Below are positions 18,471-33,183 of a stretch of 64,000 nucleotides of DNA, in pieces. Location: NCBI GenBank assembly GCA_964465145.1, contig CAYXJR010000006.1, positions 9,702 through 73,701 of the forward strand, read 5' to 3'. This DNA is from an uncultured Porphyromonadaceae bacterium. Its GTDB lineage: Bacteria; Bacteroidota; Bacteroidia; Bacteroidales; UBA12481. A program made the translations under genes and the position numbers. Each line of letters opens with the position of its first letter. The stretch's first letter is position 1. A model generated the notes under the pieces. The model did no database searches. It had not been told where the DNA came from and saw only the letters and a program-made list of their open reading frames with translations.

Positions 18471-20759
18471 CTATTTAACAATGATTTCATCAGTAAAGAT
18501 CCATGCCGGACTGCCGCTTCCCGGGTGCCAGGTAGGGCATTTCAGATAACTATCAGTTTTAAGTTTTAAGTACTCAATTTTTATAGGGGGATTAAATTTG
18601 GCTGTAAATTCCTGGACATTAACACCCTGGGCCTTTTGATCTTGTGTATTCGGAATTTCAGCCAGTAAAGTCCAGTTTTTATTATCCTCAGAGCCATAGA
18701 AGCTAACCATATCTGGAAAAAACACCCAGCTTCTAACATCCTGCAGCCAGCTGCTACTCACATATTTCACCTCCATCCTGTTCCCAAAATCGATGGTGGC
18801 TTCATATTCCTGGCCCTCAAATCCCAGCCAATTATAGCTAAATGTCAATTGCGGACCACGCAGTCCATCTGTTAACATAGCTATATTTCCGTTAGCATAT
18901 TTTTCACTGGCAGGTGAAGTAAGGGTAGTAGTTTTTTCATAAGCCAGATGTTCCTGCATATCGATCTCCCAGGTTCTCTCCAGGCTTGCCAGGTATTCAG
19001 ATGGTGTTGTGTTCCATTCTTTGAACCTTGTGACTCCCTGCTTATTGGCCCTTTCAACAAGAGCTTTGGCGGTAATTGGAATGATTTCGCGGACCATCCA
19101 CCGACCCGACTCATCCTTTACATACATCCCCCCGGGTGAGGTTCCCAGCCGCAAGGCTATTTCAACTTTCGCATATTCCAGGGGCATCCTGGCAATTCTC
19201 ACTCTTTCTAAAACCTCAGGATCATTTCTGACTGCCTTCTCTGCTTTATCAAAAATCTTCTCATACTCATTCAATTTATCCGGACGGAGCCAGGTTTGAC
19301 CGGCATTGGCAGGGTGGCCAAATATATTAAGGGGTTGGCCCGAGAGCGCCAGCTCGTCATGGATATTATCAATGTACTGACGTATGTATTTGCCAGCCTT
19401 ATCATAATATCCATTTAGGAAATCATCCATGACCTGGTCTATATTCAGATAGGGATCCCAAAGAAGCTTTGCAATTAGGTATCCTCTCAATTCAGCAAAT
19501 TCTCCCCCTACTTCCCTGTTAGCCTGCTGAAAATGCTTGTCGACATGATTTTCAACAAAATACTGCAGGTTGGGCTGCAAAACCCTGAGATTGGGAAAGG
19601 GACTTACAAGATTTTCAAACTGAATCACATAATCCCATAATAGAATATCATCCGTGATTTTTGCCCAATCCTCGAGGTCTTTTCGAAAAGAGGCTGAAGT
19701 GGGGTCATCCCGGATGGGTATACTTCTGTTTAATTCAATTGTGCACAACATGATATTTACATTAGCGGCAGGCTTTATACTTTTTGGTGCCTGCCGGGAA
19801 TATTGGTATGCCAGGGTTGAAATCACTTTATCAGGAAACTCACCGGCAATCCGGTTAATGAATTTTAGCAGAGACCCCATGGGTGTACCTTCTGCTTCAT
19901 CAATTTTCCTGCATTCATCACATTGGCAATAGGATACATTATCATTCTGACTAACCGACCAATAGGTTAGATCCGGTTGGTCATCCATGGCTTTACGAAG
20001 GTTTTTGAGGGTGATCTCAAACACATCTGGATTGGAAAGGCAGAGCTGTGTGGGTATCCGGGTGCCCTTAACCTCTGCATAGTATTCTGGATGCTCCTGG
20101 AAGAATTCCTCAGGAGGTACCAAAGTGTTAAAACTATGGCACCAATATCCCCAATCGGGATGACCCCCATCCTTATTATTATCAAGTTTATGCCAATCGG
20201 GAAAGGCTGTATTCCAAGTATCTCTATAGTGTGTTGACCTGAATTTAATAGGAGGATTATACAGCAGGTCAATTGATGCCGGAATCTCAAAACTTTTCCT
20301 CTCTGGTGTTGATTGAACACTTGAACTATAAACCCTGACTCCCAGATAATCCTCAAGGAAGCTTGTTGCTCCATACAAAGTCCCATTGTCGGACCCGCCG
20401 TAAATAAATAGCTTATCACCGATGGTCATAAGCCTGTATCCGTCCTCTTCCAGAACTTCAGGAGATTCTTCTATATAATCAACTTTCCTATTCGTGGGGC
20501 CAAGGCAGATCTCGTAATCGGTAACAGGTTCCCTATCCCTCATGATAGGAAGTTTAACCCCTGTAGATGAATGAACATAACGCTGCAATAATGATGCAGC
20601 CTTCAGTTCACTCATTTTGGCTTTGGAAGGCAGGATGATATAGTATTCACTTTCATGCCGGTCAACAATCTTCAATTTCTTCTTACAGGATGTTGTAAAG
20701 CCTATTAAAGCAAAGATTATCAGGCCAATAGAAAGCGTTCGGGCAAAGGTAAATTTCAT
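18471..20759 (-). CDS. DUF4838-type glycoside-hydrolase-like lipoprotein with C-terminal F5/8 type C domain
   Basis: The ATG at 20759 gives signal peptide and lipobox ([10 protein letters not shown]). Motifs include [38 protein letters not shown] and [11 protein letters not shown] stop lies 7 nt before the GH29 ATG. Confidence 0.6.
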
Positions 20760-20808
20760 GTTTCGAAAAGTTGGAAAGATAACATTCGAAAATACTAAAA
20801 TAAACGAA

Positions 20809-21882
20809 CTAATCTTCAGCCTCGTGAATATATTCAGCAATCCATTGACCTGCATCGGCTGTACCCACAGGCGATTCCGGGAAAAGGTCGGGTGTTCCCA
20901 CTTTTTGTTCCAAAGCCTTTTCAATGGCTTCCTCAATCAAACCAGCCTCTTCTTTCAAACCGAATTGCATATCCAGCATCAGAGCCACAGATCGGATCAT
21001 CCCGAAAGGATTAGCAATATCTTTTCCTGCTCCTTCGGGGAATGAACCGTGGATGGGTTCAAAAACAGCTGTTGACACTCCAAGGGAAGCACTTGGAAGC
21101 AAGCCTATTGAACCTGGCAAAACACTGGCTTCATCAGTCAGTATATCGCCAAACATATTCTCAGTTAGGATAACATCAAATTGGTTGGGCCTGAGGATTA
21201 GCTGCATGGCTGCATTATCGACAAAAAGATACTTAACCTCAATATCAGTATTCTCAGCTGCCAGAATCTGCATCTCCCTCCTCCATAGTTGTGAAGTCGC
21301 CAGCACGTTAGCCTTATCAACCATACATAATTTTTTCGACCTCTTCCGTGCTATATCAATGGCCATTAGGGCCACACGCCTGATCTCTCCAGTTGAGTAT
21401 GTACAGGTATCAAATGCTTGTTCACCGTTTTCTGACAAGCCTCTTGGCTCACCAAAATAAATCCCCCCCGTGAGTTCCCTAACAACGAGAAAATCAACTC
21501 CCTCCAGGCGCTCTGCTTTCAGTGGAGAATGAGAGTAAAGCGCTGGAAAAGTCTTAACAGGCCTCAGGTTGGCAAAAAGGCCCAGCTGTTTGCGCATAGC
21601 TAGCAATCCCTGTTCAGGCCGCACTTTCGCACTTGGATCATTATCATATTTTGGATCTCCTATTGCTCCAAAAAGAACAGCGTCAGCTTCAAGGCAAAGT
21701 TCATGAGTTTGCTGTGGATAGGGGGAACCAGATTTTTCAATGGCCATGCCACCAATGGGAGCAGATACTAATTCAAATACATGACCAAATACTGTTGAAA
21801 CGGCCCGGAGGACTTTCACTCCTTCTTTCATTATTTCGGGACCAATACCATCACCAGCCAGGAGGGCTATTTTTGCTTTCAT
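20809..21882 (-). CDS. leuB: 3-isopropylmalate dehydrogenase
   Basis: 357 aa. MKAKIALLAGDGIGPEI start, with the LVVRELTGGIYFG and NMFGDILTDEAS motifs. Confidence 0.95.
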   Translation of the reverse strand: MKAKIALLAGDGIGPEIMKEGVKVLRAVSTVFGHVFELVSAPIGGMAIEKSGSPYPQQTHELCLEADAVLFGAIGDPKYDNDPSAKVRPEQGLLAMRKQLGLFANLRPVKTFPALYSHSPLKAERLEGVDFLVVRELTGGIYFGEPRGLSENGEQAFDTCTYSTGEIRRVALMAIDIARKRSKKLCMVDKANVLATSQLWRREMQILAAENTDIEVKYLFVDNAAMQLILRPNQFDVILTENMFGDILTDEASVLPGSIGLLPSASLGVSTAVFEPIHGSFPEGAGKDIANPFGMIRSVALMLDMQFGLKEEAGLIEEAIEKALEQKVGTPDLFPESPVGTADAGQWIAEYIHEAED

Positions 21883-21884
21883 GA

Positions 21885-22487
21885 TCAGTTTGAAAAAGTT
21901 TTTTGTTCAAATTTTGTAATCTGCTCTTTCCTGGCCACAAGGAAATCCAGAAGGTCGAGACCATTCTGCAAACACTGGCTCCGGAATGGATTGATATGAA
22001 AACCATATCGAGCCTGTCCATTCCTGAATGAAAGATATTCTCCGGGCAGATCTACCTCCACCAGGGATTCTGGCTTTTGTAGAATTTCATTCAGTAAATC
22101 CTGATGTATATCTTCTGGCAGCGTAATAACCAGGATACCGTTATTCAAAGCGTTTGTTTTGAAGATATCAGCGAATGAGCGGGCCAGGACCACTCTGAAA
22201 CCGTAATCATAAAGAGCCCAGGCAGCGTGCTCACGAGAGGAGCCACAGCCAAAATTCCCGCCCGCCAGAAGGATTCGGGAATCCGCTGCATACTGGTTAA
22301 GGGCAAATTCAGGATTGGGCACCCCTGATGGTGTATACCTCCAGTCGGAAAAAAGTTTTTTTCCAAATTCTGCTTCCCGGCTGGTTGCCTTCAGAAAACG
22401 TGCCGGGATGATCTGGTCGGTATCAATATTGTCGACCGGAATAGGTATAACCGGGGAGGTAATAGTTTTTATAGGCTCGTATGCCAT
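21885..22487 (-). CDS. leuD: 3-isopropylmalate dehydratase small subunit
   Basis: 200 aa with DNIDTDQIIPARFLK and GGNFGCGSSREHAAWAL. Confidence 0.95.
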   Translation of the reverse strand: MAYEPIKTITSPVIPIPVDNIDTDQIIPARFLKATSREAEFGKKLFSDWRYTPSGVPNPEFALNQYAADSRILLAGGNFGCGSSREHAAWALYDYGFRVVLARSFADIFKTNALNNGILVITLPEDIHQDLLNEILQKPESLVEVDLPGEYLSFRNGQARYGFHINPFRSQCLQNGLDLLDFLVARKEQITKFEQKTFSN

Positions 22488-22571
22488 TTTTTCAATATTT
22501 CTGTATTTTCAGTTTCAGTTTGTTTTTTCATCTCTAATTTACCGGTTTCCCCAGACTGCAATAATATCCAT

Positions 22572-23972
22572 TTATAAATATTTCCGGGGATCGGTGATGA
22601 CCCCTGAAATTGCTGCCGCAGCAGCAGTAAATGGGCTGGCCAGCATTGTTCTGGCTCCTGGTCCCTGTCGGCCTTCGAAATTCCTGTTAGAGGTTGATAC
22701 GCAATATTTGCCGGCTGGGACTTTATCCTCATTCATGGCCAGGCAGGCTGAGCATCCCGGCTGTCGCAATTCAAATCCTGCTTTTGCCAATGCTTTATCA
22801 AGTCCTTCACGTCTTGTTTGCTCCTCCACCTGCTTTGATCCGGGAACGATAAAGGCGGTTATGTTATCGGCCTTTTTATGTCCTTCGATCAAGGATACAA
22901 AATCTCTGATATCTTCAATTCTACCATTAGTACAACTACCGAGAAAAACGTAATCGATGGGGAATCCCTCAAGTGTTTCCCCCTCTTCTAATCCCATATA
23001 TTTTAACGCTTTGACAAAATTACCTGTTTGTGAATCCTCCAGCTCTTCTGTCCTTGGTATCTGCCCGGTTACAGAGATACCCATTCCAGGATTAGTTCCA
23101 AAAGTAATCATGGGTGAAATTTGCATAGCATCGAAAGACCACTGTGCATCAAATGCGGCTTCCGGATCAGAAAACAGGGTTTCCCATTTTGCAATTGTTT
23201 TATCCCAACTCGAAGAATCAGGGCTGAACTCCTTGCCTTTGAGGTATGTAAAGGCTTTTTCATCTGGAGCCACCAACCCTCCCCGGGCCCCCATTTCGAT
23301 ACTCATGTTGCAGAGGCTCATCCTGCCTTCCATGCTTAGCCTGGAGATGGCTGATCCGGTAAACTCAATGAAATGCCCTGTACCCCCGTTGGTTCCTATC
23401 CTACTGAGAAGGAAAAGGGCAATATCTTTTGCTGTCACCCCTTTTCCCAGCTCCCCTTCTATCTTTATCTGCATTGTTTTAGGCCGGTGCTGCACAAGGC
23501 ATTGTGAAGCAAGCACCATTTCAACCTCGCTGGTTCCAATACCAAAAGCTATAGTCCCAAATGCTCCATGGGTAGAAGTATGACTGTCCCCACAAACTAT
23601 AGTCATCCCTGGCTGGGTCAGGCCCAGTTCCGGGCCGATTACATGGACTATCCCGTTCCATGGATGGTTAAGGGCATACAATGGGATTCCAAATTCTTTG
23701 GTATAGGACTCCAGGGCTAACAGTTGATTTCTGGATTCCATATCTTTTACAGGCACCTCCTGGTGGAGGGTGGGTACATTATGATCGGCCGTGGCAAAAG
23801 TCCTCTCCGGCCGGAACACTGGCAGTCCTCTTTTTATTAATCCTTCAAAAGCCTGGGGGCTTGTAACTTCATGAATATAATGCCTGTCTATATATAGGAC
23901 AGAAGAACCATCCTCCAGCAGCATCACCTCGTGCTTATCCCAGATCTTATCAAATAATGTTCTAGGCTGCAT
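22572..23972 (-). CDS. leuC: 3-isopropylmalate dehydratase large subunit
   Basis: 466 aa with aconitase-family motifs [27 protein letters not shown] and [10 protein letters not shown]. Confidence 0.95.
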
Positions 23973-23974
23973 CC

Positions 23975-25468
23975 TTAAATCGTTTTGGATAGGGCATCTG
24001 CCAGCGCAATAACCGATGCAGTTATGATATCAGTATCTGCCCCGTACCCATACCAGATTCTATCTCTGGCCTTAATTCTCACATGCACTTTTCCAACATC
24101 ATCGCTTCCCCGGGTAATAGCCTGGATCAGAAATTCGTCCAGAATAAATTCCTCGTCTACAAGCTTTTTTACAGCATTAATACATGCATCAATAGGACCA
24201 TTTCCCTCGGCTGTTGCAGCTTTCTCTTCTCCCATGATTTCCAGATGGACAGTAGCCATCGGGATGGTGGATTTCCCTGCAACTACCTGAAGAAGTTTAA
24301 GTTTTACAGACTGATCAGGGCGGGAACCGCTACCTGATAAGGCGATGATATCCTCATCAGTTACCTGCTTCTTCTTGTCGGCCATTAGCAGGAATTTATC
24401 ATAAATTTTATCCAGGCCCTTCCCCTCTGCGGAGCAACCCAAACGATCAAGGTGATGCCTTAGGGCCGCTCTTCCACTCCGGGCTGTAAGTACAATAGCT
24501 GAGGCATCAACTCCCACTGAAACAGGATCGATAATCTCATAATTCTCCCTGTTTTTGAGGACTCCATCCTGGTGTATCCCTGAGGAATGGGCGAATGCAT
24601 TTCGCCCGACAATAGCCTTGTTTGGTTGAACAGGCATGTTCATCAGGGAGGAAACCATGCGGCTGGTTTCCATGATCCTTTCGGTTTGAATGCCCGTTAT
24701 AACAGGGATATCTTTTCTGGTTTTCACGGCCATAACCACTTCTTCGAGGGAAGTATTTCCTGCCCTTTCCCCAATTCCATTTATAGTTACCTCTACCTGC
24801 CTGGCGCCGTTCATAACTCCGGCAAGGCTGTTTGCCGTTGCCATTCCCAGATCATTATGACAATGTGTCGACAGAATTGCCTTGTGCATTCCTTTAACAT
24901 TTTCCATTAGGTAGCGGATCTTTTCACCATATTCATTGGGCAGGCAATATCCGGTGGTATCAGGAATATTGATAACACGGGCCCCGGCCTTTATAACAGC
25001 CTCCACTACACGTGCCAGATAAACATTATCTGTCCGGCCTGCATCTTCGGCATAAAACTCCACCTCTTCCACCAGGTTGCGCGCCATCTTAACGGCTGCC
25101 ACCGCCCTTTCAATAATCTCTTCCTCGTTTGAATGCAGCTTCAACTTAATATGATAAGGAGAGGTTCCTATACCTGTATGAATCCTTGCTCGTTTGGCGT
25201 ATTTTAGGGCGGCTGCAGCCACCTCAATATCGCCTTTCACAGCTCGAGAAAGGCTACAAATAACAGGTTCTCTAATGTTCTTGCAGATTTGTTCCACCGC
25301 ATCGAAATCCCCTGGACTGGAAACAGGAAAACCAGCTTCAATGACGTCTACTCCAAGCAGTTCAAGGGCCTTTGCTACCTCAATCTTTTCGATTGTATTC
25401 AACTGGCATCCAGGCACCTGTTCACCATCCCGAAGGGTAGTGTCGAAAATGTATAACTTATTTGACAT
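23975..25468 (-). CDS. leuA: 2-isopropylmalate synthase
   Basis: 497 aa with [11 protein letters not shown] and [16 protein letters not shown]. Confidence 0.95.
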
Positions 25469-25507
25469 GTTCTTATTTTAGACTTTAGTTAGTCTTCGAA
25501 TTGAAAA

Positions 25508-26545
25508 TCAGGGACGAAGCTTTCTTACTTGCTTCCCGGTTTGCCACATTTCGGATTCCCGGATTTCCTTAAGTTCTTCTTCAAGCTTTTCGCGGTAGTT
25601 TTCCTGGCTACCGGCCTTAATGGCTATTTCCGCTTCCTTGCCTGAGGCAACGCGATCATATAAATCATCGAAGACCGGTTCAACAGCTTTGCGAAAGCGG
25701 TGTCTCCAGTCGAGGGCACCTCTTTGAGCCGTTGTGGAACAGTTAGCATACATCCAATCCATACCGTTTTCAGCTACCAGAGGCATAAGGCTTTGCGTGA
25801 GTTCCTCTACGGTTTCATTAAAAGCTTCGGATGGAGAGTGACCATTCTTTCGCAGACAATGATATTGGGCTTCAAACACACCAGCTATCGCTCCCATCAG
25901 AACTCCACGCTCTCCGGTTAGATCGGAGAATACTTCCCGTTTAAAATCGGTCTCAAACATATAACCTGAGCCAATGCCAATCCCCATGGCTTTGACCCGG
26001 TCCAGGGCATTTCCCGTGGCGTCCTGGTATACGGCATAGCTGGAATTCAATCCTTTTTGTTGAAGATAAAGGCGGCGGAGGGAGGTTCCTGAGCCTTTGG
26101 GAGCAACCAAAATCACGTCTATATCCTTGGAAGGTTTTATCCCTGTTTGTTCATGAAAGGTAACTCCAAATCCATGTGAGAAATATAGTGCTTTACCAGG
26201 AGTAAGGTGTTTCTCTATAGTAGGCCAAACTGCTATCTGTCCGGCGTCAGAAAGAAGGTTTGCCAGAATAGTTCCCTTTTGAGCTGCCTCATCCAGGCCG
26301 AAAAGGCTTACACCCTCAATCCAACCATCCTGAAGTGCCTTCTCCCAGGAAGCGGTTCCGGGACGCTGTCCTACGATTACCTTAAATCCACTATCTTTCA
26401 GGTTCAAAGCTTGTCCTGGTCCCTGTATGCCATAACCAAGTATGGCAATTGTTTCATTTTCCAGAACTTCCCTGGCTTTCTCCATGGGGAATTCCTCTCG
26501 CGTAGTCACTTGTTCAACCACGCCACCAAAATTAATTTTAGCCAT
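25508..26545 (-). CDS. ilvC: ketol-acid reductoisomerase
   Basis: 345 aa with ILGYGIQGPGQALNLKDSG and FSHGFGVTF. Confidence 0.95.
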   Translation of the reverse strand: MAKINFGGVVEQVTTREEFPMEKAREVLENETIAILGYGIQGPGQALNLKDSGFKVIVGQRPGTASWEKALQDGWIEGVSLFGLDEAAQKGTILANLLSDAGQIAVWPTIEKHLTPGKALYFSHGFGVTFHEQTGIKPSKDIDVILVAPKGSGTSLRRLYLQQKGLNSSYAVYQDATGNALDRVKAMGIGIGSGYMFETDFKREVFSDLTGERGVLMGAIAGVFEAQYHCLRKNGHSPSEAFNETVEELTQSLMPLVAENGMDWMYANCSTTAQRGALDWRHRFRKAVEPVFDDLYDRVASGKEAEIAIKAGSQENYREKLEEELKEIRESEMWQTGKQVRKLRP

Positions 26546-26561
26546 TATTTTTTTCTATTAA

Positions 26562-26855
26562 TTAAACTATTTGCTTTTGTATCTCCAATGAAGCAGCCCA
26601 TTCGGGTTGTTCAGTGGAATATGCCTGCATGACTTCCACTTGTTTTTCAATTTGCTTGACCACTTGTTTTATCGTCCGTGGATCTGTATTAACCACCATA
26701 GATATTTGTGCTATACCCTTCATGGCAGTTTCGGCAAGGGTGAGACTATTGATATTTATTCCTCGTCTGGAAAAAACCATAGCAATACGGCTTAACAAAC
26801 CAACCCTGTCCTGGGCCAGTGTCGTAACTAAATAATCCTTTGTAAAATGCATCAT
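26562..26855 (-). CDS. ilvN: acetolactate synthase small (regulatory) subunit, short ACT-only form
   Basis: 97 aa with ACT-domain signature LAQDRVGLLSRIAMVFSRRGININSLTL. Sits between ilvB and ilvC. It lacks the C-terminal half found in long IlvH forms. Confidence 0.75.
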   Translation of the reverse strand: MMHFTKDYLVTTLAQDRVGLLSRIAMVFSRRGININSLTLAETAMKGIAQISMVVNTDPRTIKQVVKQIEKQVEVMQAYSTEQPEWAASLEIQKQIV

Positions 26856-26869
26856 ATCTCTGTTTTCTT

Positions 26870-28618
26870 TTATTTACATTTTTTATCAGGCGATAATATC
26901 ATATCTGTTACCGCAGCGCCTGGAGGAACCATTGGAAAAACATTCTCCTCTTTCTCCACAACTACTTCAATCAGGATAGGGCCATCAGTTGAAATTCCCT
27001 TTTTCAATTGCTCAACCAGGTTTTCTCTGGAAGTTATCCGCATCCCAATTAAGCCGCAGGCGTCAGCAAGTTTTACGAAATCCGGCCCACTTAGAGTGGT
27101 ACTGGCATATCTCCCTTCGAAGAAAAGTTCCTGCCATTGCCTCACCATACCAAGGAAACCATTGTTTAATACAATTATTTTCACAGGAAGTTTTTCATGA
27201 GCAATAGTGACTAGTTCCTGCATGGTCATTTGGAGTCCCCCGTCACCAATAAAAGCAACTACGGTACGGTTGGGCTGACCAACCTGTGCGCCTAGTGCCG
27301 CCGGAAGTCCAAAACCCATAGTTCCCAGTCCGCCGGATGTTACGAGTGTACGGGCAGTTTTCAGTGGAAAATACCGGGCTGCTTTCATCTGGTGCTGTCC
27401 AACATCAGTAACAACGATTGCTTCCGGACCAACTATTTTGGCGACCTCATTAATTACTTGACCCATTAATGGCTTTCCCGAGATAGGGTGCAGATCCCGG
27501 TCAATTACAACCCGCTGCTCTTCAGTGCTTAATTCAGCAAAACTATCCACCCATTTATCATGGCGATTTTCCCTGACCAGTGGGATAATATTTTGTAAAA
27601 AAGCCTTTGCGTCAGCCTGGATTTCCAATTCGGTGACTATATTTTTGTCTAGCTCTGTGGGATCTATATCCACATGAATAATCCTGGCCTTAGGCAGATA
27701 GGTAGATACATTTCCAGTAACCCTGTCGTCAAACCGCATTCCTATGGCCAGAACAACATCTGCTTCACCGGTTTTCAAATTCGGAGCATAATTCCCGTGC
27801 ATCCCCAGCATGCCCATAAATAAAGGATGTCCGGCAGGCAATGCTGACAGGCCTAAAAGAGTTGCGGCAGCCGGAACACCTGATTTTTCAACGAAAGCGC
27901 GCAGCTCTTCAGAAGATTTTGACAAAATGATTCCCTGGCCAAACAAAACCATTGGCCGCTTAGCTGAATTAATCCAATCAGCTGCTTTTATCACCTGCTC
28001 AATGTCAGGCTGTATTATTGGTTTATAGGTTTGCAGTGAGTTGCATTTTGAATATCTGAATTTTATTTTCTCCGAAAAAACATTCTTAGTAATGTCAACC
28101 AATACAGGACCAGGCCTACCAGCCCGGGCTATATAGAAAGCCTTGGCCATCACAGCAGAGAGCTCCTCAGCACTACTAACTCTTGCGTTCCACTTTGTAA
28201 CAGCCATACTGATAGTCAATATGTCTGTTTCCTGGAAGGCATCCGTACCCACAAGATTATCCACTACCTGCCCGGTAATACAAACCAGGGGTGTTGAATC
28301 AAGGTAGGCATCAGCAATTCCAGTCAATATGTTAGTTGCTCCCGGGCCTGATGTAGCCAGGCAAACGCCAGTTTTTCCTGTAACCCGGGCAAAACCTTGG
28401 GCTGCATGTACAGCACCTTGTTCATGGCGAGTTAAAATATGACGGAAACAGTCCCCACTTTGGTGTAATGCATCATATAAAGGCATTATAGCCCCGCCAG
28501 GGTATCCAAACATGGTTTCCACTCCTTCTTCCAAAAAACAAAGCAATATCGCTTCAGCTCCAGTGATTTTTTCACCTGTAAGAATCCGTTCTTCCAATTT
28601 TTCTGAACAGTCTGTCAT
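26870..28618 (-). CDS. ilvB: acetolactate synthase large subunit
   Basis: ThDP-enzyme motifs GYPGGAIMPLYDAL and GLGTMGFGLPAALGA...GDGGLQM. The ATG at 28618 (MTDCSEKLEE) avoids overlap with ilvD. The ORF is open to 28690. Confidence 0.9.
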   Translation of the reverse strand: MTDCSEKLEERILTGEKITGAEAILLCFLEEGVETMFGYPGGAIMPLYDALHQSGDCFRHILTRHEQGAVHAAQGFARVTGKTGVCLATSGPGATNILTGIADAYLDSTPLVCITGQVVDNLVGTDAFQETDILTISMAVTKWNARVSSAEELSAVMAKAFYIARAGRPGPVLVDITKNVFSEKIKFRYSKCNSLQTYKPIIQPDIEQVIKAADWINSAKRPMVLFGQGIILSKSSEELRAFVEKSGVPAAATLLGLSALPAGHPLFMGMLGMHGNYAPNLKTGEADVVLAIGMRFDDRVTGNVSTYLPKARIIHVDIDPTELDKNIVTELEIQADAKAFLQNIIPLVRENRHDKWVDSFAELSTEEQRVVIDRDLHPISGKPLMGQVINEVAKIVGPEAIVVTDVGQHQMKAARYFPLKTARTLVTSGGLGTMGFGLPAALGAQVGQPNRTVVAFIGDGGLQMTMQELVTIAHEKLPVKIIVLNNGFLGMVRQWQELFFEGRYASTTLSGPDFVKLADACGLIGMRITSRENLVEQLKKGISTDGPILIEVVVEKEENVFPMVPPGAAVTDMILSPDKKCK

Positions 28619-28637
28619 ATTAATGATAAAAATTAAG

Positions 28638-30530
28638 TTAATCAACAATCCTAACGGCCCCCAGGTCTGCCGAACTGACAAATTTCGCATAGGCCCTCAA
28701 AGCAGTGCTGATTTCTCGTTCGCGAACTGGTTTATAGGCATCTTCTCCCTTATCCAACTCTTTTTTTCTTCTTTCTTTAAGTTCCTGGTCGCTGATTTTA
28801 AGATTAATAGAACGCTCAAGAATATTTATATCTATTTTATCACCCTCTTGAACCATTACGATATCTCCTCCTGCAGCTGCTTCAGGAGACACATGTCCGA
28901 TAGATAATCCGGATGTCCCGCCTGAGAAACGACCGTCGGTAATCAAGGCACAGGTTTGATCAAGTCCTTTTGATTTAAGGTAAGAAGTGGGATAAAGCAT
29001 TTCCTGCATCCCTGGACCACCCTTTGGCCCCTCAAACAATATTAATATAACATCACCGGGTCGGATCTGATCAGTAAGGATTGCGGTTGATGCCTCATCC
29101 TGAGAATGAAATATTCTCGCCGATCCGGTAAAAGAAAATAGGCTCTCTTTTACTCCGGCAGTTTTTACCACACATCCATTTTGCGCAATATTCCCGTAAA
29201 GGATGGCCAAACCACCCTCCTGATTGTAAGCATGTGGTATGTCGCGGATACAGCCCTCTTCCCTGTCAGTATCCAACTCGGGGTAGAATTTATTCTGGTA
29301 TGCAAATCCCTGCGACCGAGGCCCATATCCTGGTGCCGACAAGTATTTCTGGACTGCGGAAATAGTTACGTCCGGGGAAAGTATATCAAACTCCTTAATG
29401 GCTGCTTCCAGGTCATCGAAATCAAGGCGGCGGGCTTTGATGTTTAACAGTCTGCCTTTTGCCAATTCACCCATCAATGCCATGATCCCTCCGGCTCTTC
29501 CGAAATCCTGTATATGGTAGGAGGAACTAGGCGATAATTTGCACAGGTTGGGCACTTTTCTTGAAAGCGCATCAATATCATCCATTGTAAAGTCAACTCC
29601 GGCTTCGTGGGCAATGGCTAGTAAATGCAAAATAGTATTTGTTGAACCACCCATAGCTATATCCACTGTCATGGCATTCAGGAAAGCTGCCCTTGAGGCA
29701 AGATTTCGAGGAAGATATTTTTCATCCCCATCGAAATAATACTTATTGGCGATCTCAACAATTTTATGCGCAGATTCAACAAACAGCTTTTTCCGGTTGG
29801 CGTGTGTAGCAAGAATAGTACCGTTTCCAGGCAAAGCCAAACCCAGGGCTTCATTAAGGCAATTCATAGAGTTGGCGGTGAAGAGCCCGCTGCATGAACC
29901 ACAGGTGGGACAGGCATTTTCTTCGAGGGATTTTAGCTGATCATCCGAAGTAAGCGGATCACCAGCTGCCACCATAACATCTACCAAATCATGATCCTTA
30001 TTTCCGATACGTCCTGCCTCCATGGGCCCTCCCGACACAAAAATCACTGGAATATTTATCCGCATGGCAGCTAGCATCATCCCAGGAGTAATTTTATCAC
30101 AATTAGAGATGCAAATCATCGCATCCACACAATGTGCATTGCAAACATACTCAATGCTGTCAGCTATTAAGTCCCTGGATGGCAATGAATATAGCATACC
30201 TCCATGACCCATAGCTATTCCATCATCAATAGCAATAGTATTGAATTCAGGGGCAAAACAACCGTAAGATTCGATTTCAGCCTTGAGCATTTGTCCCACC
30301 TCGTGAAGGTGAGCATGGCCGGGAACGAACTGAGAAAAAGAATTTACCACAGCGATCACCGGATTACCAAACTGCTCTTGCTTCATCCCATTTGCCCGCC
30401 AAAGACTGCGCGCACCAGCCATACGACGACCCTGTGTGGCCGTATAACTCCTCAAAGGCAAAACCCATTTCCTGTCACCAGCAGAATATTTTATCTGTTC
30501 AGAGTTTGAAATATGCTCCTTTTCTGTCAC
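28638..30530 (-). CDS. ilvD: dihydroxy-acid dehydratase
   Basis: Motifs [25 protein letters not shown] and [11 protein letters not shown]. The longest ORF starts at GTG 30530. An in-frame TTG at 30461 ([18 protein letters not shown]) fits the usual N-terminus better. Confidence 0.9.
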
Positions 30531-30691
30531 GATAATTTTCTCCTCTATTACACTTATCCCTTTTTACTTCTAACTTCTCACCAACTTTTGCCATCTGCCC
30601 GGTCCCTGAGCTTGTCGAAGGGCTGCCCTCTGCACTAATAAGATCTAGAATCCGAGTATGCATTGCGCTTTTCATTCTTAAAAATTTGTCC

Positions 30692-30723
30692 AAAAAAAAC
30701 CCTTCTCTTAACGAGAAGGGTTT
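30692..30723 (-). terminator. intrinsic terminator of the ilv-leu leader attenuator
   Basis: Minus-strand RNA AAACCCUUCUC-GUUAA-GAGAAGGGUUU forms an 8 G/C-rich bp core extended to 11 bp, followed directly by U8. It lies between the leader ORF and ilvD. Confidence 0.7.
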
Positions 30724-30757
30724 ATGTTTTTTCCGTATTGGTATAATACCACCCTTC

Positions 30758-30820
30758 TCATTTTAGGTCCACGAGGACCAAAATAATAAGAATAGCGATA
30801 TTGAGATTACGGGTTATCAT
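30758..30820 (-). CDS. ilv-leu operon leader peptide (MITRNLNIAILIILVLVDLK)
   Basis: 20 codons plus TGA, with 12 of 20 residues Ile/Leu/Val, including the run IAILIILVLV. The stop codon is embedded in GAGAAGGGU, which duplicates the 3' terminator arm and can pair with the 5' arm ACCCUUCUC. Confidence 0.65.
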   Translation of the reverse strand: MITRNLNIAILIILVLVDLK

Positions 30821-30835
30821 GTCTTTTTCTGGCTC

Positions 30836-30868
30836 CAAAGGTAAGCGAGTAATTTTATATAATGCAAA
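30836..30868 (-). promoter_or_regulatory. candidate Bacteroidota sigma-A-type promoter for the ilv-leu operon
   Basis: On the minus strand, TTTG (30868-30865), a 21-nt spacer, then TACCTTTG (30843-30836), which matches TAnnTTTG. This lies 15 nt upstream of the leader ATG. Confidence 0.4.
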
Positions 30869-31064
30869 TAAATTGGTGTTTTTCTAAATTGGCCTTTAGC
30901 TAACAGCCTAATTTCAAGTTGATTAATTTTAATGTTAAGTATGAAATTTTGAAATCCAATTTTTCTGTTCGTTTATTAATAACTTGTTTGACAGTTTATT
31001 GTGACTATGGTGAACAAAACTTTTTATGATACATTTTGTTCTACTCTCAGATAAACAACAATTC

Positions 31065-31319
31065 ATGATTATGTTATTTGGATTATTAAATCGCAAAAAA
31101 ACCGTAAAATGCTGTTATGAACTTGAATGTCCTAACGCATGGGGTCATCAGAACTTCAACGGTGCATTTTATCGTCGAAGAAATGATAAACAAATTGATG
31201 TCAATAATAAATTGGTCAAGTATGGTTTCATTCAAGACTTCCAGGTAAATTACATCGATGGGATAAGGCTTAAAGGCCATGAAGTGGCAGGGTTCTGCAA
31301 ATCCTGCCATCACGTTTAG
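31065..31319 (+). CDS. small Cys-rich hypothetical protein (two Cys pairs, possible zinc ribbon)
   Basis: The ORF is open from 31026 and the ATG at 31065 is the likelier start. Contains KCCYELECPNAWGHQ...DKQIDVNN...IDGIRLK...CKSC. It resembles a conserved Bacteroidota small-protein family from memory only. Sits in an AT-rich, gene-poor stretch. Confidence 0.4.
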   Translation: MIMLFGLLNRKKTVKCCYELECPNAWGHQNFNGAFYRRRNDKQIDVNNKLVKYGFIQDFQVNYIDGIRLKGHEVAGFCKSCHHV

Positions 31320-31398
31320 ACCTCTATGAGTTATCTGCAAGAGCCTTAGTGCTCTTTATTGTGAAATGTTGTGTTATTTGAATAACAATCCCCTCGAA

Positions 31399-31437
31399 CA
31401 AAAAGAACTGCCGACAATCTTGGGGGACTGTCGGCAG
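31399..31437 (-). terminator. intrinsic terminator downstream of the sulfatase gene
   Basis: On the minus strand, CTGCCGACA-(12 nt loop)-TGTCGGCAG forms a 9-bp perfect stem followed by TTCTTTTTG. Confidence 0.55.
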
Positions 31438-31623
31438 ACCAGAATTTATGAAAAGTTGCGTTTATATAACGCTAGTTGACTGTTCTTTTGATAGTATGCT
31501 GTATTTTCTAATTATTTCTTGCCAGGCACTTAATAGTAAGACGCAATAAAGGGCAAAGTGTTACATGAATAAATGTTAAAAAAACCTAAAATCTTTCTTA
31601 TTGGTAAATTAGGCTGTCAAAAA

Positions 31624-33183
31624 TTATTTTTCTAAAGGTATTAGAGCCCTGGCTGCTTCTTCACTATCACCATACTGTTTCTGCAGTCGAGCCAACTCAG
31701 CCTTCATTTCAATGAGAATATCTGAGTAAGCCGGATCATTAAAAACATTGTTCATCTCTTTGGGATCTTTTTCAAGGTCATACATTTCCCATTCATCAAT
31801 ATTGTAGTAAAAATGCATAAGCTTATACCGCTCTGTACGAACTCCATAATGTCTCTTGACGGCGTGTGCACCCGGGTATTCATAATAGTGATAGTAAATT
31901 GATTTACGCCAATCCGGATTCTTATCAGGTTTGAAAAGTGGTACCATTGACACGCCCTGCATTTCCTCAGGGATGGGAGCACCTGCCAAATCCAAAAAGG
32001 TCTCGGCAAAATCCAGATGCTGTACTAGTGCATCTGAAGTTGTACCAGCTTCAGTCTCACCTGGTAATCTTATGAGCAACGGCATGCCCAAACTCTCCTC
32101 ATACATAAAACGCTTATCGAACCAGCCGTGCTCTCCCAGATAGAAACCCTGATCGGAGGTATAAAATACAGCTGTGTTATCAGTCAGGCCCTTCTCATCC
32201 AGGTAATCCAACAATCGCCTCACCTGGTCATCCACACTTTGAATGCATGCAAGATAATCCCGCATGTAACGCTGATATTTCCATATGGCAAGCTCTTTGC
32301 CTTCCATGTGGCGACTGTAAAAATCTTTGATAATTGGATCGTAATGAGCATCCCATGCTGAGCGCTGGTCAGGAGTCAAGCGATTCAGCTGTCCTTTCAC
32401 CCAGTTATCGCCAACCTGTATAACCGTAGTATCGGGGTTTAATGTCTTAAGGTCGTACCCTATCATCATATCCTTGATGATCGACATTTTTTGCTCTTTT
32501 GCGGCACTGCCCCTGTTTGAATAATCGTCGAAATAATTATCTGGAACCGGGAAAGTTATTTCTTCAAAATTGAAATATTTTGGTTCGGGCATCCAGTTAC
32601 GATGGGGTGCCTTATGATGCACCATCAGGAAAAAGGGTTTCTCATTTTCCCTATTATTCAACCAGTTCAGGGCTTCATCGGTGATTATTGTAGTGGCGTA
32701 GCCAGTATAATTACGAACTCCTGTGGAGTCCTTTAAGTCGGGATTATAATACGACCCTTGCCCCAATAGGATTTTCCAGAAATCAAAACCCGTGGGATCG
32801 CTCTTTAGATGCCATTTTCCAATCATTGCAGTTTCATAACCCGCCTCCCTGAGCAACTTGGGAACGGTTACCTGGCTGCCATCAAATGTTGAGTTGTTAT
32901 CGAGGTGTCCATTTACATGGCTAAACTTCCCTGTTAAAACAACTGCCCTGCTGGGAGCGCATATTGAATTAGTGCAAAACGCATTATTGAACCGAATCCC
33001 TTCATTAGCCAGACGGTCAATATTAGGTGTATGGTTAAGGCCATAACCGTAGGCGGATACAGCTTGATAGGCATGATCATCGGCCATGATATAGAGGATA
33101 TTGTATTGTTTACCCTGCTGACAGGAAGATATCAGCAGAAATAAAGAAAATAAGGAAATCAAGATTGCTGGAACTCGTTTCAT
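31624..33183 (-). CDS. S1-family sulfatase (formylglycine-dependent), lipoprotein
   Basis: 519 aa with lipobox LLISSC and the sulfatase signature CTNSICAPSRAVVLTGK (C-x-A-x-R). Confidence 0.9.
   Translation of the reverse strand: MKRVPAILISLFSLFLLISSCQQGKQYNILYIMADDHAYQAVSAYGYGLNHTPNIDRLANEGIRFNNAFCTNSICAPSRAVVLTGKFSHVNGHLDNNSTFDGSQVTVPKLLREAGYETAMIGKWHLKSDPTGFDFWKILLGQGSYYNPDLKDSTGVRNYTGYATTIITDEALNWLNNRENEKPFFLMVHHKAPHRNWMPEPKYFNFEEITFPVPDNYFDDYSNRGSAAKEQKMSIIKDMMIGYDLKTLNPDTTVIQVGDNWVKGQLNRLTPDQRSAWDAHYDPIIKDFYSRHMEGKELAIWKYQRYMRDYLACIQSVDDQVRRLLDYLDEKGLTDNTAVFYTSDQGFYLGEHGWFDKRFMYEESLGMPLLIRLPGETEAGTTSDALVQHLDFAETFLDLAGAPIPEEMQGVSMVPLFKPDKNPDWRKSIYYHYYEYPGAHAVKRHYGVRTERYKLMHFYYNIDEWEMYDLEKDPKEMNNVFNDPAYSDILIEMKAELARLQKQYGDSEEAARALIPLEK

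Follow-up and report, generated by a model that had tools for sequence, protein, structure and literature searches.

A putative leader-peptide transcription attenuator upstream of the ilv-leu genes of an uncultured Bacteroidales bacterium and its relatives in the Bacteroidota

Transcription attenuation by leader peptides, for which the trp operon provides the paradigm, is familiar from the enterobacterial operons for synthesis of branched-chain amino acids (BCAAs), namely ilvGMEDA (leader ilvL), ilvBN (ivbL), and leuABCD (leuL). A trp leader of Bacteroidetes has an Rfam family of its own, and reports by Vitreschak et al. in 2004 and Lopatovskaya et al. in 2010 are said to mention attenuators in the Bacteroidetes/Chlorobi group. 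Here we describe an element upstream of ilvD in a 64,000-nucleotide stretch of DNA (hereafter the window) from an uncultured Porphyromonadaceae bacterium of the order Bacteroidales (assembly GCA_964465145.1, contig CAYXJR010000006.1, positions 9,702 to 73,701). On the minus strand of the window, a promoter-like sequence, a short open reading frame (ORF) rich in Ile, Leu, and Val (ILV) codons, and an intrinsic terminator precede the gene cluster ilvDBNC-leuACDB. Taken together, the sequence and its conservation indicate that the element is very probably a ribosome-mediated leader-peptide transcription attenuator, and the best explanation of its features is that it would sense charged tRNA-Ile, tRNA-Leu, and tRNA-Val and govern read-through into ilvDBNC-leuACDB.

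A model of enterobacterial and trp attenuation is presented in PMC1183508. Within the Bacteroidota, Guerin et al. (2021) annotated the 5' region of the ilvE-ilvD-ilvB mRNA of Flavobacterium psychrophilum as a leader-peptide attenuation element (PMC9723704, Supporting Information (SI) D9 and Table S7), and mapping of the transcription start site (TSS) and of the transcript supports the ilvE 5' region (PMC9723704). The same authors proposed his, pheA, and trp leaders in this species, and their SI refers to a trp peptide-leader RNA that had been identified earlier in silico in Bacteroidetes genomes (PMC9723704). For the ilv leader, Table S7 and SI D9 name only the first peptide, of 25 amino acids (aa), and these two sections do not describe alternative pairings (PMC9723704). 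An earlier sequence-only reading of the window had proposed an attenuator upstream of ilvD and implied that such an element was new to the lineage; the latter was too strong, since an ilv leader attenuator with the same boxes had already been proposed in F. psychrophilum.

The leader ORF (Table 1) is present on the minus strand as the sequence-only reading described it, with 20 codons that specify 5 Ile, 5 Leu, and 2 Val among 20 residues. The run IAILIILVLV, given there as ten consecutive ILV codons, is also present and contains one Ala, which leaves nine of ten. Both strands of the window were scanned for ATG-initiated ORFs of 8-45 codons with at least six ILV residues in eight and a terminator no more than 110 nt away, and this leader alone fitted that description.

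All four segments of a classical attenuator are present in the leader. The 156-nt leader has a minimum free energy (MFE) of -51.1 kcal/mol compared with -28.7 +/- 3.9 kcal/mol in dinucleotide shuffles (z = -5.7, 0/200). Regions 3 and 4 form the terminator AAACCCUUCUC-GUUAA-GAGAAGGGUUU (30723-30697), which has an 11-bp stem, a 5-nt loop, and an energy of -16.6 kcal/mol and is followed by the U8 tract, as had been proposed. The antiterminator that the earlier reading suggested, between the stop-codon box and the 5' arm of the terminator, was found as a helix of 12 bp in which 30762-30751 pairs with 30721-30710 (5' arm and part of the loop); its energy is -15.1 to -17.8 kcal/mol with the adjacent hairpin at 30750-30740 included, versus the -16.6 kcal/mol of the terminator. 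The 2:3 antiterminator and the 3:4 terminator are mutually exclusive. Region 2 contains a purine box that opens with the UGA stop codon. The 9-mer GAGAAGGGU in this box is, as claimed, an exact copy of the first 9 nt of the terminator 3' arm (30707-30699); it occupies 30759-30751, one base away from the 30752-30760 reported before, and the stop codon, which was said to sit inside it, overlaps it by its G and A and is not contained within it.

The classic enterobacterial ilv/leu logic to which the sequence-only reading appealed held up in each of its testable sequence-level predictions, and the one segment that reading overlooked is the 1:2 hairpin. Folded alone, the 1:2 hairpin has an energy of -29.5 kcal/mol compared with -16.7 kcal/mol in codon-order shuffles (z = -4.1, 0/100). 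The small hairpin GGUCC-UCGU-GGACC that had been noted within the leader ORF (30779-30766) forms the tip of this structure, and similar apical hairpins are present in most related leader folds. By analogy with trp, the apical hairpin may serve as a pause signal that synchronises the ribosome and the polymerase. The attenuator hairpin at 30697-30723 is symmetrical, and it is also terminator-like on the plus strand, with the tail ATGTTTTTTC; this likeness looks incidental because no plus-strand gene converges on the hairpin.

To follow how a ribosome on the leader would affect these pairings, nascent RNA was folded at a stage before region 4 is made, with the leader masked to 15 nt past the first base of the P-site codon, a footprint size that is an assumption of these folds. 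With the P site at any of codons 8-16, the antiterminator is the structure that the nascent RNA adopts. Masking at codon 17 leaves only a partial antiterminator, and masking at codon 20 or at the stop codon prevents it from forming (-1.1 kcal/mol).

A mechanism for the attenuator can be outlined in which promoter use, leader translation, ribosome stalling, kinetic competition between the helices, and BCAA-dependent read-through are steps that we infer from these elements. Transcription would start a few bases 3' of the TAnnTTTG motif, so that the 20-codon leader ORF would be translated first. If BCAAs were plentiful, the ribosome would reach the UGA and cover region 2, the 3:4 terminator would form, and the polymerase would halt at the U8 tract. 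If any one of the BCAA-tRNAs were scarce, the ribosome would stall in codons 8-16, where it would occupy region 1, disrupt the 1:2 hairpin, and leave region 2 free to capture the emerging region 3 before region 4 exists; no terminator would form, and the ilvD operon would be transcribed. Were the leader not translated at all, the 1:2 and 3:4 hairpins would both form and lead to termination.

The sequence-only reading had left the conservation of the mini-ORF and of the two pairings to be examined in orthologous leaders, and both the ORF and the pairings proved to be conserved upstream of ilvD. One genome per species was scanned with the N-terminal 300 residues of IlvD, which yielded 80 loci, mostly from Bacteroidales, Marinilabiliales, Paludibacteraceae, Dysgonomonadaceae, and Marinifilaceae and some from Desulfobulbaceae and spirochaetes. 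The best IlvD identity among these loci is 77%, and the source species itself thus lies outside the set. A search for ATG-initiated ORFs of 10-40 codons with at least six ILV residues in eight and a terminator within 110 nt recovered 43 units, from 40 of the 80 loci, in the 39 kb that lie at most 500 nt 5' of ilvD, compared with 3 units in the other 859 kb of these loci on both strands, which amounts to an enrichment of about 300-fold upstream of ilvD. The 43 leaders contain ILV-rich ORFs of 16-29 aa at the corresponding position, and the arrangement of leader and terminator upstream of ilvD is kept across Bacteroidales, Marinilabiliales, and relatives. Culturable species with the unit include Dysgonomonas mossii DSM 22836 (locus L030), Anaerophaga thermohalophila DSM 12881 (L036), Labilibacter marinus (L032), and Marinifilum fragile JCM 15579 (L007). 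Half of the 80 loci are without the unit, among them non-Bacteroidota loci for which this is unsurprising. In most of the unit-less Bacteroidota loci that were checked, a long open frame on the same strand ends about 10-300 nt before ilvD, and ilvD therefore may not be the first gene there; a few other unit-less loci hold an ILV-rich ORF that fails the strict search criteria, for instance because it starts with GTG or TTG or because its terminator is weaker.

Conservation of the pairings was assessed in an alignment (A1) of 39 distinct leaders. The terminator helix is 92.3% paired over the 39 leaders (38-68% in slid controls), and 10 of its 12 pairs show compensatory changes, a count that none of 500 column shuffles equals. 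Region 2 has the consensus UGAGRAWGG (alignment columns 91-101), which complements CCWUUCUCA in the 5' arm of the terminator, and 82.3% of the cells in the antiterminator are paired versus 44-55% in slid controls. Examples of co-variation in the antiterminator include UGAGAAUGG/CCAUUCUU, CCGGAAA/UUUCCGG, and GGGAAGACGUGC/GCGCUCUUCC. Taken sequence by sequence, the most stable duplex that the leader can form with the terminator 5' arm has a mean z of -2.8 relative to dinucleotide shuffles. In most leaders the region 2 box begins 0 to +12 nt from the stop codon, counted from its first base, and 21 of 40 leaders use the UGA of the box as their stop. In Marinifilum and in loci L036 and L039 the leader ORF runs through the box, an arrangement that is equally compatible with the attenuator model. 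The 1:2 hairpin is present in nearly all folds of individual leaders; relative to codon-order shuffles of 42 leaders it has a mean z of -1.9, with z < -1.64 in 25 of the 42 and a Wilcoxon p value of 5e-8 that overstates independence, as the leader sequences are related. What has been shown directly comprises the elements and their energies, their conservation, the covarying terminator helix, and an antiterminator box conserved both in its complementarity and in its position relative to the stop codon.

The TTTG-N21-TACCTTTG promoter candidate that had been pointed out is present 5' of the leader ORF, and the 15 nt between TACCTTTG and the leader ATG are A-rich. Among the 43 related leaders, 36 have TAnnTTTG no more than 90 nt 5' of the leader ATG, mostly at 15-35 nt, and many have a second TTTG about 19-21 nt further 5' of this -7 motif. 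The homologous leader of F. psychrophilum is TSS-mapped. The sequence upstream of the leader ATGs contains 54% A and 11% G compared with a background of 46% A, which fits initiation that does not depend on a Shine-Dalgarno (SD) sequence and is non-discriminating. A scan for sigma-70 promoters gave counts at chance level and is uninformative for Bacteroidota.

The leader peptide is hydrophobic and has about the length of a transmembrane helix, and small membrane peptides are frequent and often escape annotation. It could be argued on these grounds that the mini-ORF encodes a functional small membrane peptide and that the hairpin is a plain or leaky terminator with no part in amino-acid sensing. 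Pooled leader peptides, however, are 56% I/L/V in nearly equal shares (19% Ile, 18.5% Leu, and 18% Val), with 1.3% Ala, 2.3% Gly, and 3.6% Phe, and F, M, A, W, G, and C together account for 9%; equal shares of I/L/V with so little Ala, Gly, and Phe are unlike transmembrane segments, and the composition is one that would suit a three-amino-acid sensor. Beyond the ILV run the peptides differ in sequence, and such limited conservation, the concentration of the unit upstream of ilvD, the placement of the stop codon on the antiterminator box, and a codon order biased toward pairing with that box all count against a membrane peptide, which we regard as very unlikely.

The codon usage of the leaders bears on the form of the RNA boxes in the attenuator. 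The preferred leader codons are AUU, CUC, CUU, GUC, and GUG, and region 1 is therefore pyrimidine-rich. Complementarity would pass this bias on to regions 2-4, which would explain why the stem CCUUUCUC/GAGAAAGG is so unusually conserved across families. CCUUUCU resembles the 3' tail of 16S rRNA, and the region 2/4 box GAGAAAGG was also considered as an SD-like site for this tail. Such a role is unlikely, as the anti-SD sequence is sequestered in Bacteroidia ribosomes and prfB frameshifting in Flavobacterium johnsoniae is reported to occur apparently without SD pairing, and the explanation from ILV codons is simpler. Bacteroidia ribosomes make no use of SD sequences (PMC6847099 and PMC7797042).

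A second alternative accepts the terminator/antiterminator switch as real and assigns its trigger to something other than the ribosome, such as a protein, a T-box-like tRNA interaction, a riboswitch, or effects of nucleoside triphosphates or guanosine tetraphosphate (NTP/ppGpp) on RNA polymerase, with the ORF incidental. Many non-ribosomal systems employ terminator/antiterminator pairs, translation of the leader ORF belongs to the inferred part of the attenuation mechanism, and the SD-independence described for Bacteroidia ribosomes means that the efficiency of initiation at the leader ORF could not have been predicted beforehand. Searches with covariance models gave this alternative little to build on. 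At E <= 10, cmscan of positions 29500-32000 returned only sub-threshold matches driven by the terminator (Phe_leader, MCS4, and rnk leaders), the best match in Rfam 15 being Phe_leader, whose 27.7 bits fall short of its threshold of 55; no other Rfam leader family or T-box was found at E <= 10 in this interval, nor was there a match to a riboswitch family even at this cutoff. A scan of 20 related loci at gathering thresholds identified no leader family, and the only RNA found was the Bacteroidales small signal recognition particle (SRP) RNA. By the Rfam models, the element lies outside every curated leader family, among them the Leu, Thr, His, Trp, and Phe leaders, the leu/phe leader, and the Bacteroidetes trp leader, and outside T-box, in line with the earlier suspicion that no curated model covers it. 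Moreover, the roughly 35 nt between regions 2 and 3 are poorly conserved and could hardly house an aptamer, 43 leaders keep an ORF of 16-29 codons that starts with ATG and contains an ILV run despite nucleotide divergence, and the position of the stop codon relative to region 2 is conserved. A non-ribosomal trigger is thus very improbable in our view. The SRP RNA recovered by the scans (RF04183, 104 bits) lies at 2070-2177 on the plus strand of locus L022, a metagenome-assembled genome, about 170 nt 5' of the ilv leader ORF.

A third reading takes the hairpin for a common terminator, either bidirectional or at the end of a gene, that shields ilvD from neighbouring transcription, with the ILV-rich ORF and the complementarity of the boxes arising by coincidence. 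Its symmetry and terminator-like appearance on the plus strand would be expected of such a terminator, and small ORFs rich in ILV are not unusual where DNA is AT-rich, there being 25 in the window. Against this, the arylsulfatase-like gene upstream on the minus strand (31624-33183) has a strong 12-bp terminator of its own at 31437-31408, only antisense ORFs within ilvD converge on the hairpin from the plus strand, and a terminator that follows a promoter and precedes an operon's first gene insulates nothing. ORF and terminator are also combined in this way only once in the window, and the combination recurs at orthologous positions. We consider coincidence with an insulating terminator extremely unlikely.

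Some results weigh against ribosome-mediated attenuation as we have set it out. The TTTG/-7 pattern by itself is not significant in the 64-kb window (5 matches, 3.2 expected). RNAalifold applied to the 39-leader alignment found the terminator independently, and this was the sole structure it recovered. Covariation in the antiterminator is modest, with 13 double-change cells, a number reached by 10 of 500 shuffles, and support for this helix therefore comes largely from the conservation of both boxes; mismatches are frequent at alignment columns 98/162. The register of the 1:2 hairpin shifts between lineages, and for this reason it was judged from per-sequence folds and not from covariation in the alignment. 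Finally, the full-length RNA at equilibrium favours the terminator despite a masked ribosome. The model therefore requires folding to be kinetic and co-transcriptional and translation to be tightly coupled to transcription.

Table 1. Coordinates in the window of the leader elements, the spacer, and the ilv-leu genes.
Feature	Coordinates	Strand	Basis or remark
Promoter-like TTTG (-33-like, Bacteroidota type)	30865..30868	minus	pattern TTTG-N21-TACCTTTG spans 30868-30836
-7 motif TACCTTTG (TAnnTTTG)	30836..30843	minus	ends 15 nt before leader ATG; putative promoter role
Leader ORF, 20 codons + TGA, peptide MITRNLNIAILIILVLVDLK	30758..30820	minus	ATG 30820-30818, TGA 30760-30758
Region 1, Asn7 codon into Ile13 (ORF nt 19-36)	30785..30802	minus	pairs with region 2 in MFE folds
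Apical hairpin GGUCC-UCGU-GGACC, tip of 1:2 structure	30766..30779	minus	inside 3' part of leader ORF
Region 2 AAUGAGAAGGGUGGUAUU, includes stop codon	30745..30762	minus	pairs with region 1, or via 30762-30751 with region 3
Small hairpin GGUA-UUA-UACC, stacks on antiterminator helix	30740..30750	minus	ribosome-masked nascent-transcript folds
Region 3, terminator 5' arm AAACCCUUCUC (30723-30713)	30710..30723	minus	30721-30710 pairs with region 2 in antiterminator
Region 4, terminator 3' arm GAGAAGGGUUU	30697..30707	minus	sequence and fold
U8 tract of intrinsic terminator	30692..30699	minus	predicted attenuated 3' end
Spacer from terminator to ilvD start, ~160 nt	30531..30691	minus	no significant structure
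ilvD	28638-30530	minus	NCBIfam equivalog
ilvB	26870-28690	minus	NCBIfam equivalog
ilvN	26562-26855	minus	NCBIfam equivalog
ilvC	25508-26545	minus	NCBIfam equivalog
leuA	23975-25468	minus	NCBIfam equivalog
leuC	22572-23972	minus	NCBIfam equivalog
leuD	21885-22487	minus	NCBIfam equivalog
leuB	20809-21882	minus	NCBIfam equivalog

The genes downstream of the leader, named by NCBIfam models at E values of 1e-17 to 1e-299, agree with the fused eight-gene BCAA operon proposed earlier. The eight ilv-leu genes span 20809..30530, all lie on the same strand, and are separated by intergenic gaps of at most 84 nt. Terminator-like sites within the cluster are at chance level (13 versus 13.8 expected), with no strong internal terminators, and the eight genes are presumably transcribed as a single RNA. 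The ilvN product is a short acetolactate synthase small subunit of 97 aa that, in a profile of about 160 residues, covers only the ACT region, roughly its first 80 positions, and has Pfam ACT matches.

The terminator hairpin lies about 165 nt upstream of ilvD, and the spacer between them is unusually long, since most relatives have about 35-110 nt from the terminator to the start of the IlvD match. The spacer was inspected for remnants of a further attenuator and for other structured RNAs and proved to be less structured than shuffles (30531-30691, z = +2.2). A 64-aa ORF with a TTG start (30499-30693, minus strand) fills the spacer and overlaps the start of ilvD. Gene callers applied to metagenome contigs with an identical locus called this ORF, which has no Pfam match, and missed the 20-codon leader; the 64-aa ORF is probably spurious. 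The start of ilvD is uncertain within 30464-30530 on the minus strand. Its longest ORF begins with the GTG at 30530, about 22-25 residues ahead of the start of the NCBIfam profile (residue 26 corresponds to profile position 4), and the resulting N-terminal extension, which is matched by several relatives in tblastn searches, may be real.

Upstream of the leader, about 540 nt of AT-rich, apparently non-coding sequence (30869-31407) separate the terminator of the sulfatase gene from the ilv leader promoter. Directly 3' of leuB is an ORF of 821 aa (18471-20936, minus strand) that has no NCBIfam match at E <= 1e-10. The longest version of this ORF, which has a TTG start, overlaps leuB by 128 nt, and because of this overlap the true start is probably later.

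The published 437-nt sequence THC0290_N_0324 from F. psychrophilum, when re-read with the boxes described here, contains three tandem attenuator units at nt 10-84, 158-211, and 287-343. Unit 1 has a mixed I/V leader, and units 2 and 3, which encode MTTNTIIIISIIIRSFE and MTTNTIIIIISIIIRSFE, are near-identical and Ile-only within the pattern MTTNTIIII(I)SIIIRSFE. In both of these units the UGA lies inside GUGAGUYAGGCUGG and is followed by AAGCCUUUCUCA-UUCACU-UGAGAAAGGCUU-U8. The published sequence contains GUGAGUCAGGCUG at the stop codon, which pairs with AAGCCUUUCUCA at -12.6 kcal/mol. Sequence comparison therewith places the window element in a family that spans at least the Bacteroidia and the Flavobacteriia and of which one member has been partly described in print.

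Tandem units also occur in Marinifilum spp., where two complete leader and terminator units lie 5' of ilvD (locus L007, approximately 2137-2432; also L010 and L052). The first encodes MRLSTVIIINVIILVLLGHRTGLCMFK, a mixed I/V/L peptide, the second encodes MLSFNVIIIVIIISIVIIRMRIREDVHIQ, which is nearly all Ile and Val, and each has its own antiterminator box within its ORF. These two units may be gates in series that differ in the amino acids they sense. The leader thus has one unit in the window, two in Marinifilum, and three in F. psychrophilum, and the codon content of tandem units varies between Ile-only and mixed I/L/V, so that they could be separate sensors. We tentatively suggest, as an idea that falls a little short of probable, that these leaders make up an uncurated, modular BCAA family, marked by the boxes UGAGRAWGG and CCWUUCUCA/UGAGAAAGG, in which tandem units may be serial gates that sense amino acids separately.

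How Bacteroidota regulate the synthesis of amino acids has been poorly characterised, and their BCAA leaders are without a curated RNA model. The locus described here and its approximately 40 relatives are a ready seed alignment for the missing RNA family, and such a model would improve the annotation of gut and environmental Bacteroidales genomes, in which gene callers now miss the leader. Since attenuation needs the first ribosome to be close behind the polymerase and the unit is conserved, the family argues for coupled transcription and translation in Bacteroidota. If that is the case, the family would be direct and assayable evidence of tight coupling in a phylum that ignores SD sequences, and the leader offers a simple reporter for coupling where initiation is SD-independent. 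The architectures of one, two, and three tandem units in relatives add to the value of the family, which had been noticed before, if not curated. The mechanism itself is textbook, which makes the advance an incremental one.

Comparison with known systems shows which features of the predicted attenuator are shared and which are its own. Like enterobacterial ilvL, ivbL, and leuL, it has a short ORF rich in the amino acids of the pathway ahead of BCAA genes, the 1:2, 2:3, and 3:4 hairpins, the last of which, followed by a U tract, forms an intrinsic terminator, and a stop codon placed so that a terminating ribosome would block region 2; the multivalent sensing of Ile, Leu, and Val predicted here also resembles that of ilvL. 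Unlike the enterobacterial leaders, with which it has no detectable similarity in sequence or by covariance models, it has a putative TTTG/TAnnTTTG promoter of the Bacteroidota kind and not one of the -35/-10 type, lacks an SD sequence before the leader ORF, where the DNA is A-rich, and would serve a fused eight-gene ilv-leu cluster through one leader in place of separate ilv and leu operons.

Among Gram-positive bacteria, leader-peptide attenuation of ilv genes has also been described in Corynebacterium glutamicum, as a three-hairpin attenuator of ilvBNC (PMC11857589), and a single leader ahead of a combined ilv-leu operon, with a leucine-rich attenuator peptide, in Staphylococcus aureus (PMC5794164), where CodY repression is added to attenuation. 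These systems belong to other phyla, are unrelated in sequence, and are backed in those accounts by mutational evidence, whereas the case made here is a sequence-based one. The trp leader of Bacteroidetes and the his and pheA leaders of F. psychrophilum represent the same device within the phylum, with other amino acids and other sequences. Unlike the ilv leader of F. psychrophilum, which has three units and an operon that begins with ilvE, the window has one unit with equal numbers of Ile and Leu. The N-terminal M(R)KFN of the F. psychrophilum leader is common to loci L025, L026, L041, and L047. Beyond phylum and pathway, the window element shares with the F. psychrophilum leader the ILV- or Ile-rich ORF, the terminator box AAGCCUUUCUCA ... 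UGAGAAAGGCUU followed by a U tract, and a UGA stop in a GUGAG...GG box complementary to the CCWUUCUCA terminator arm, an arrangement that is likewise shared with the 39 aligned leaders.

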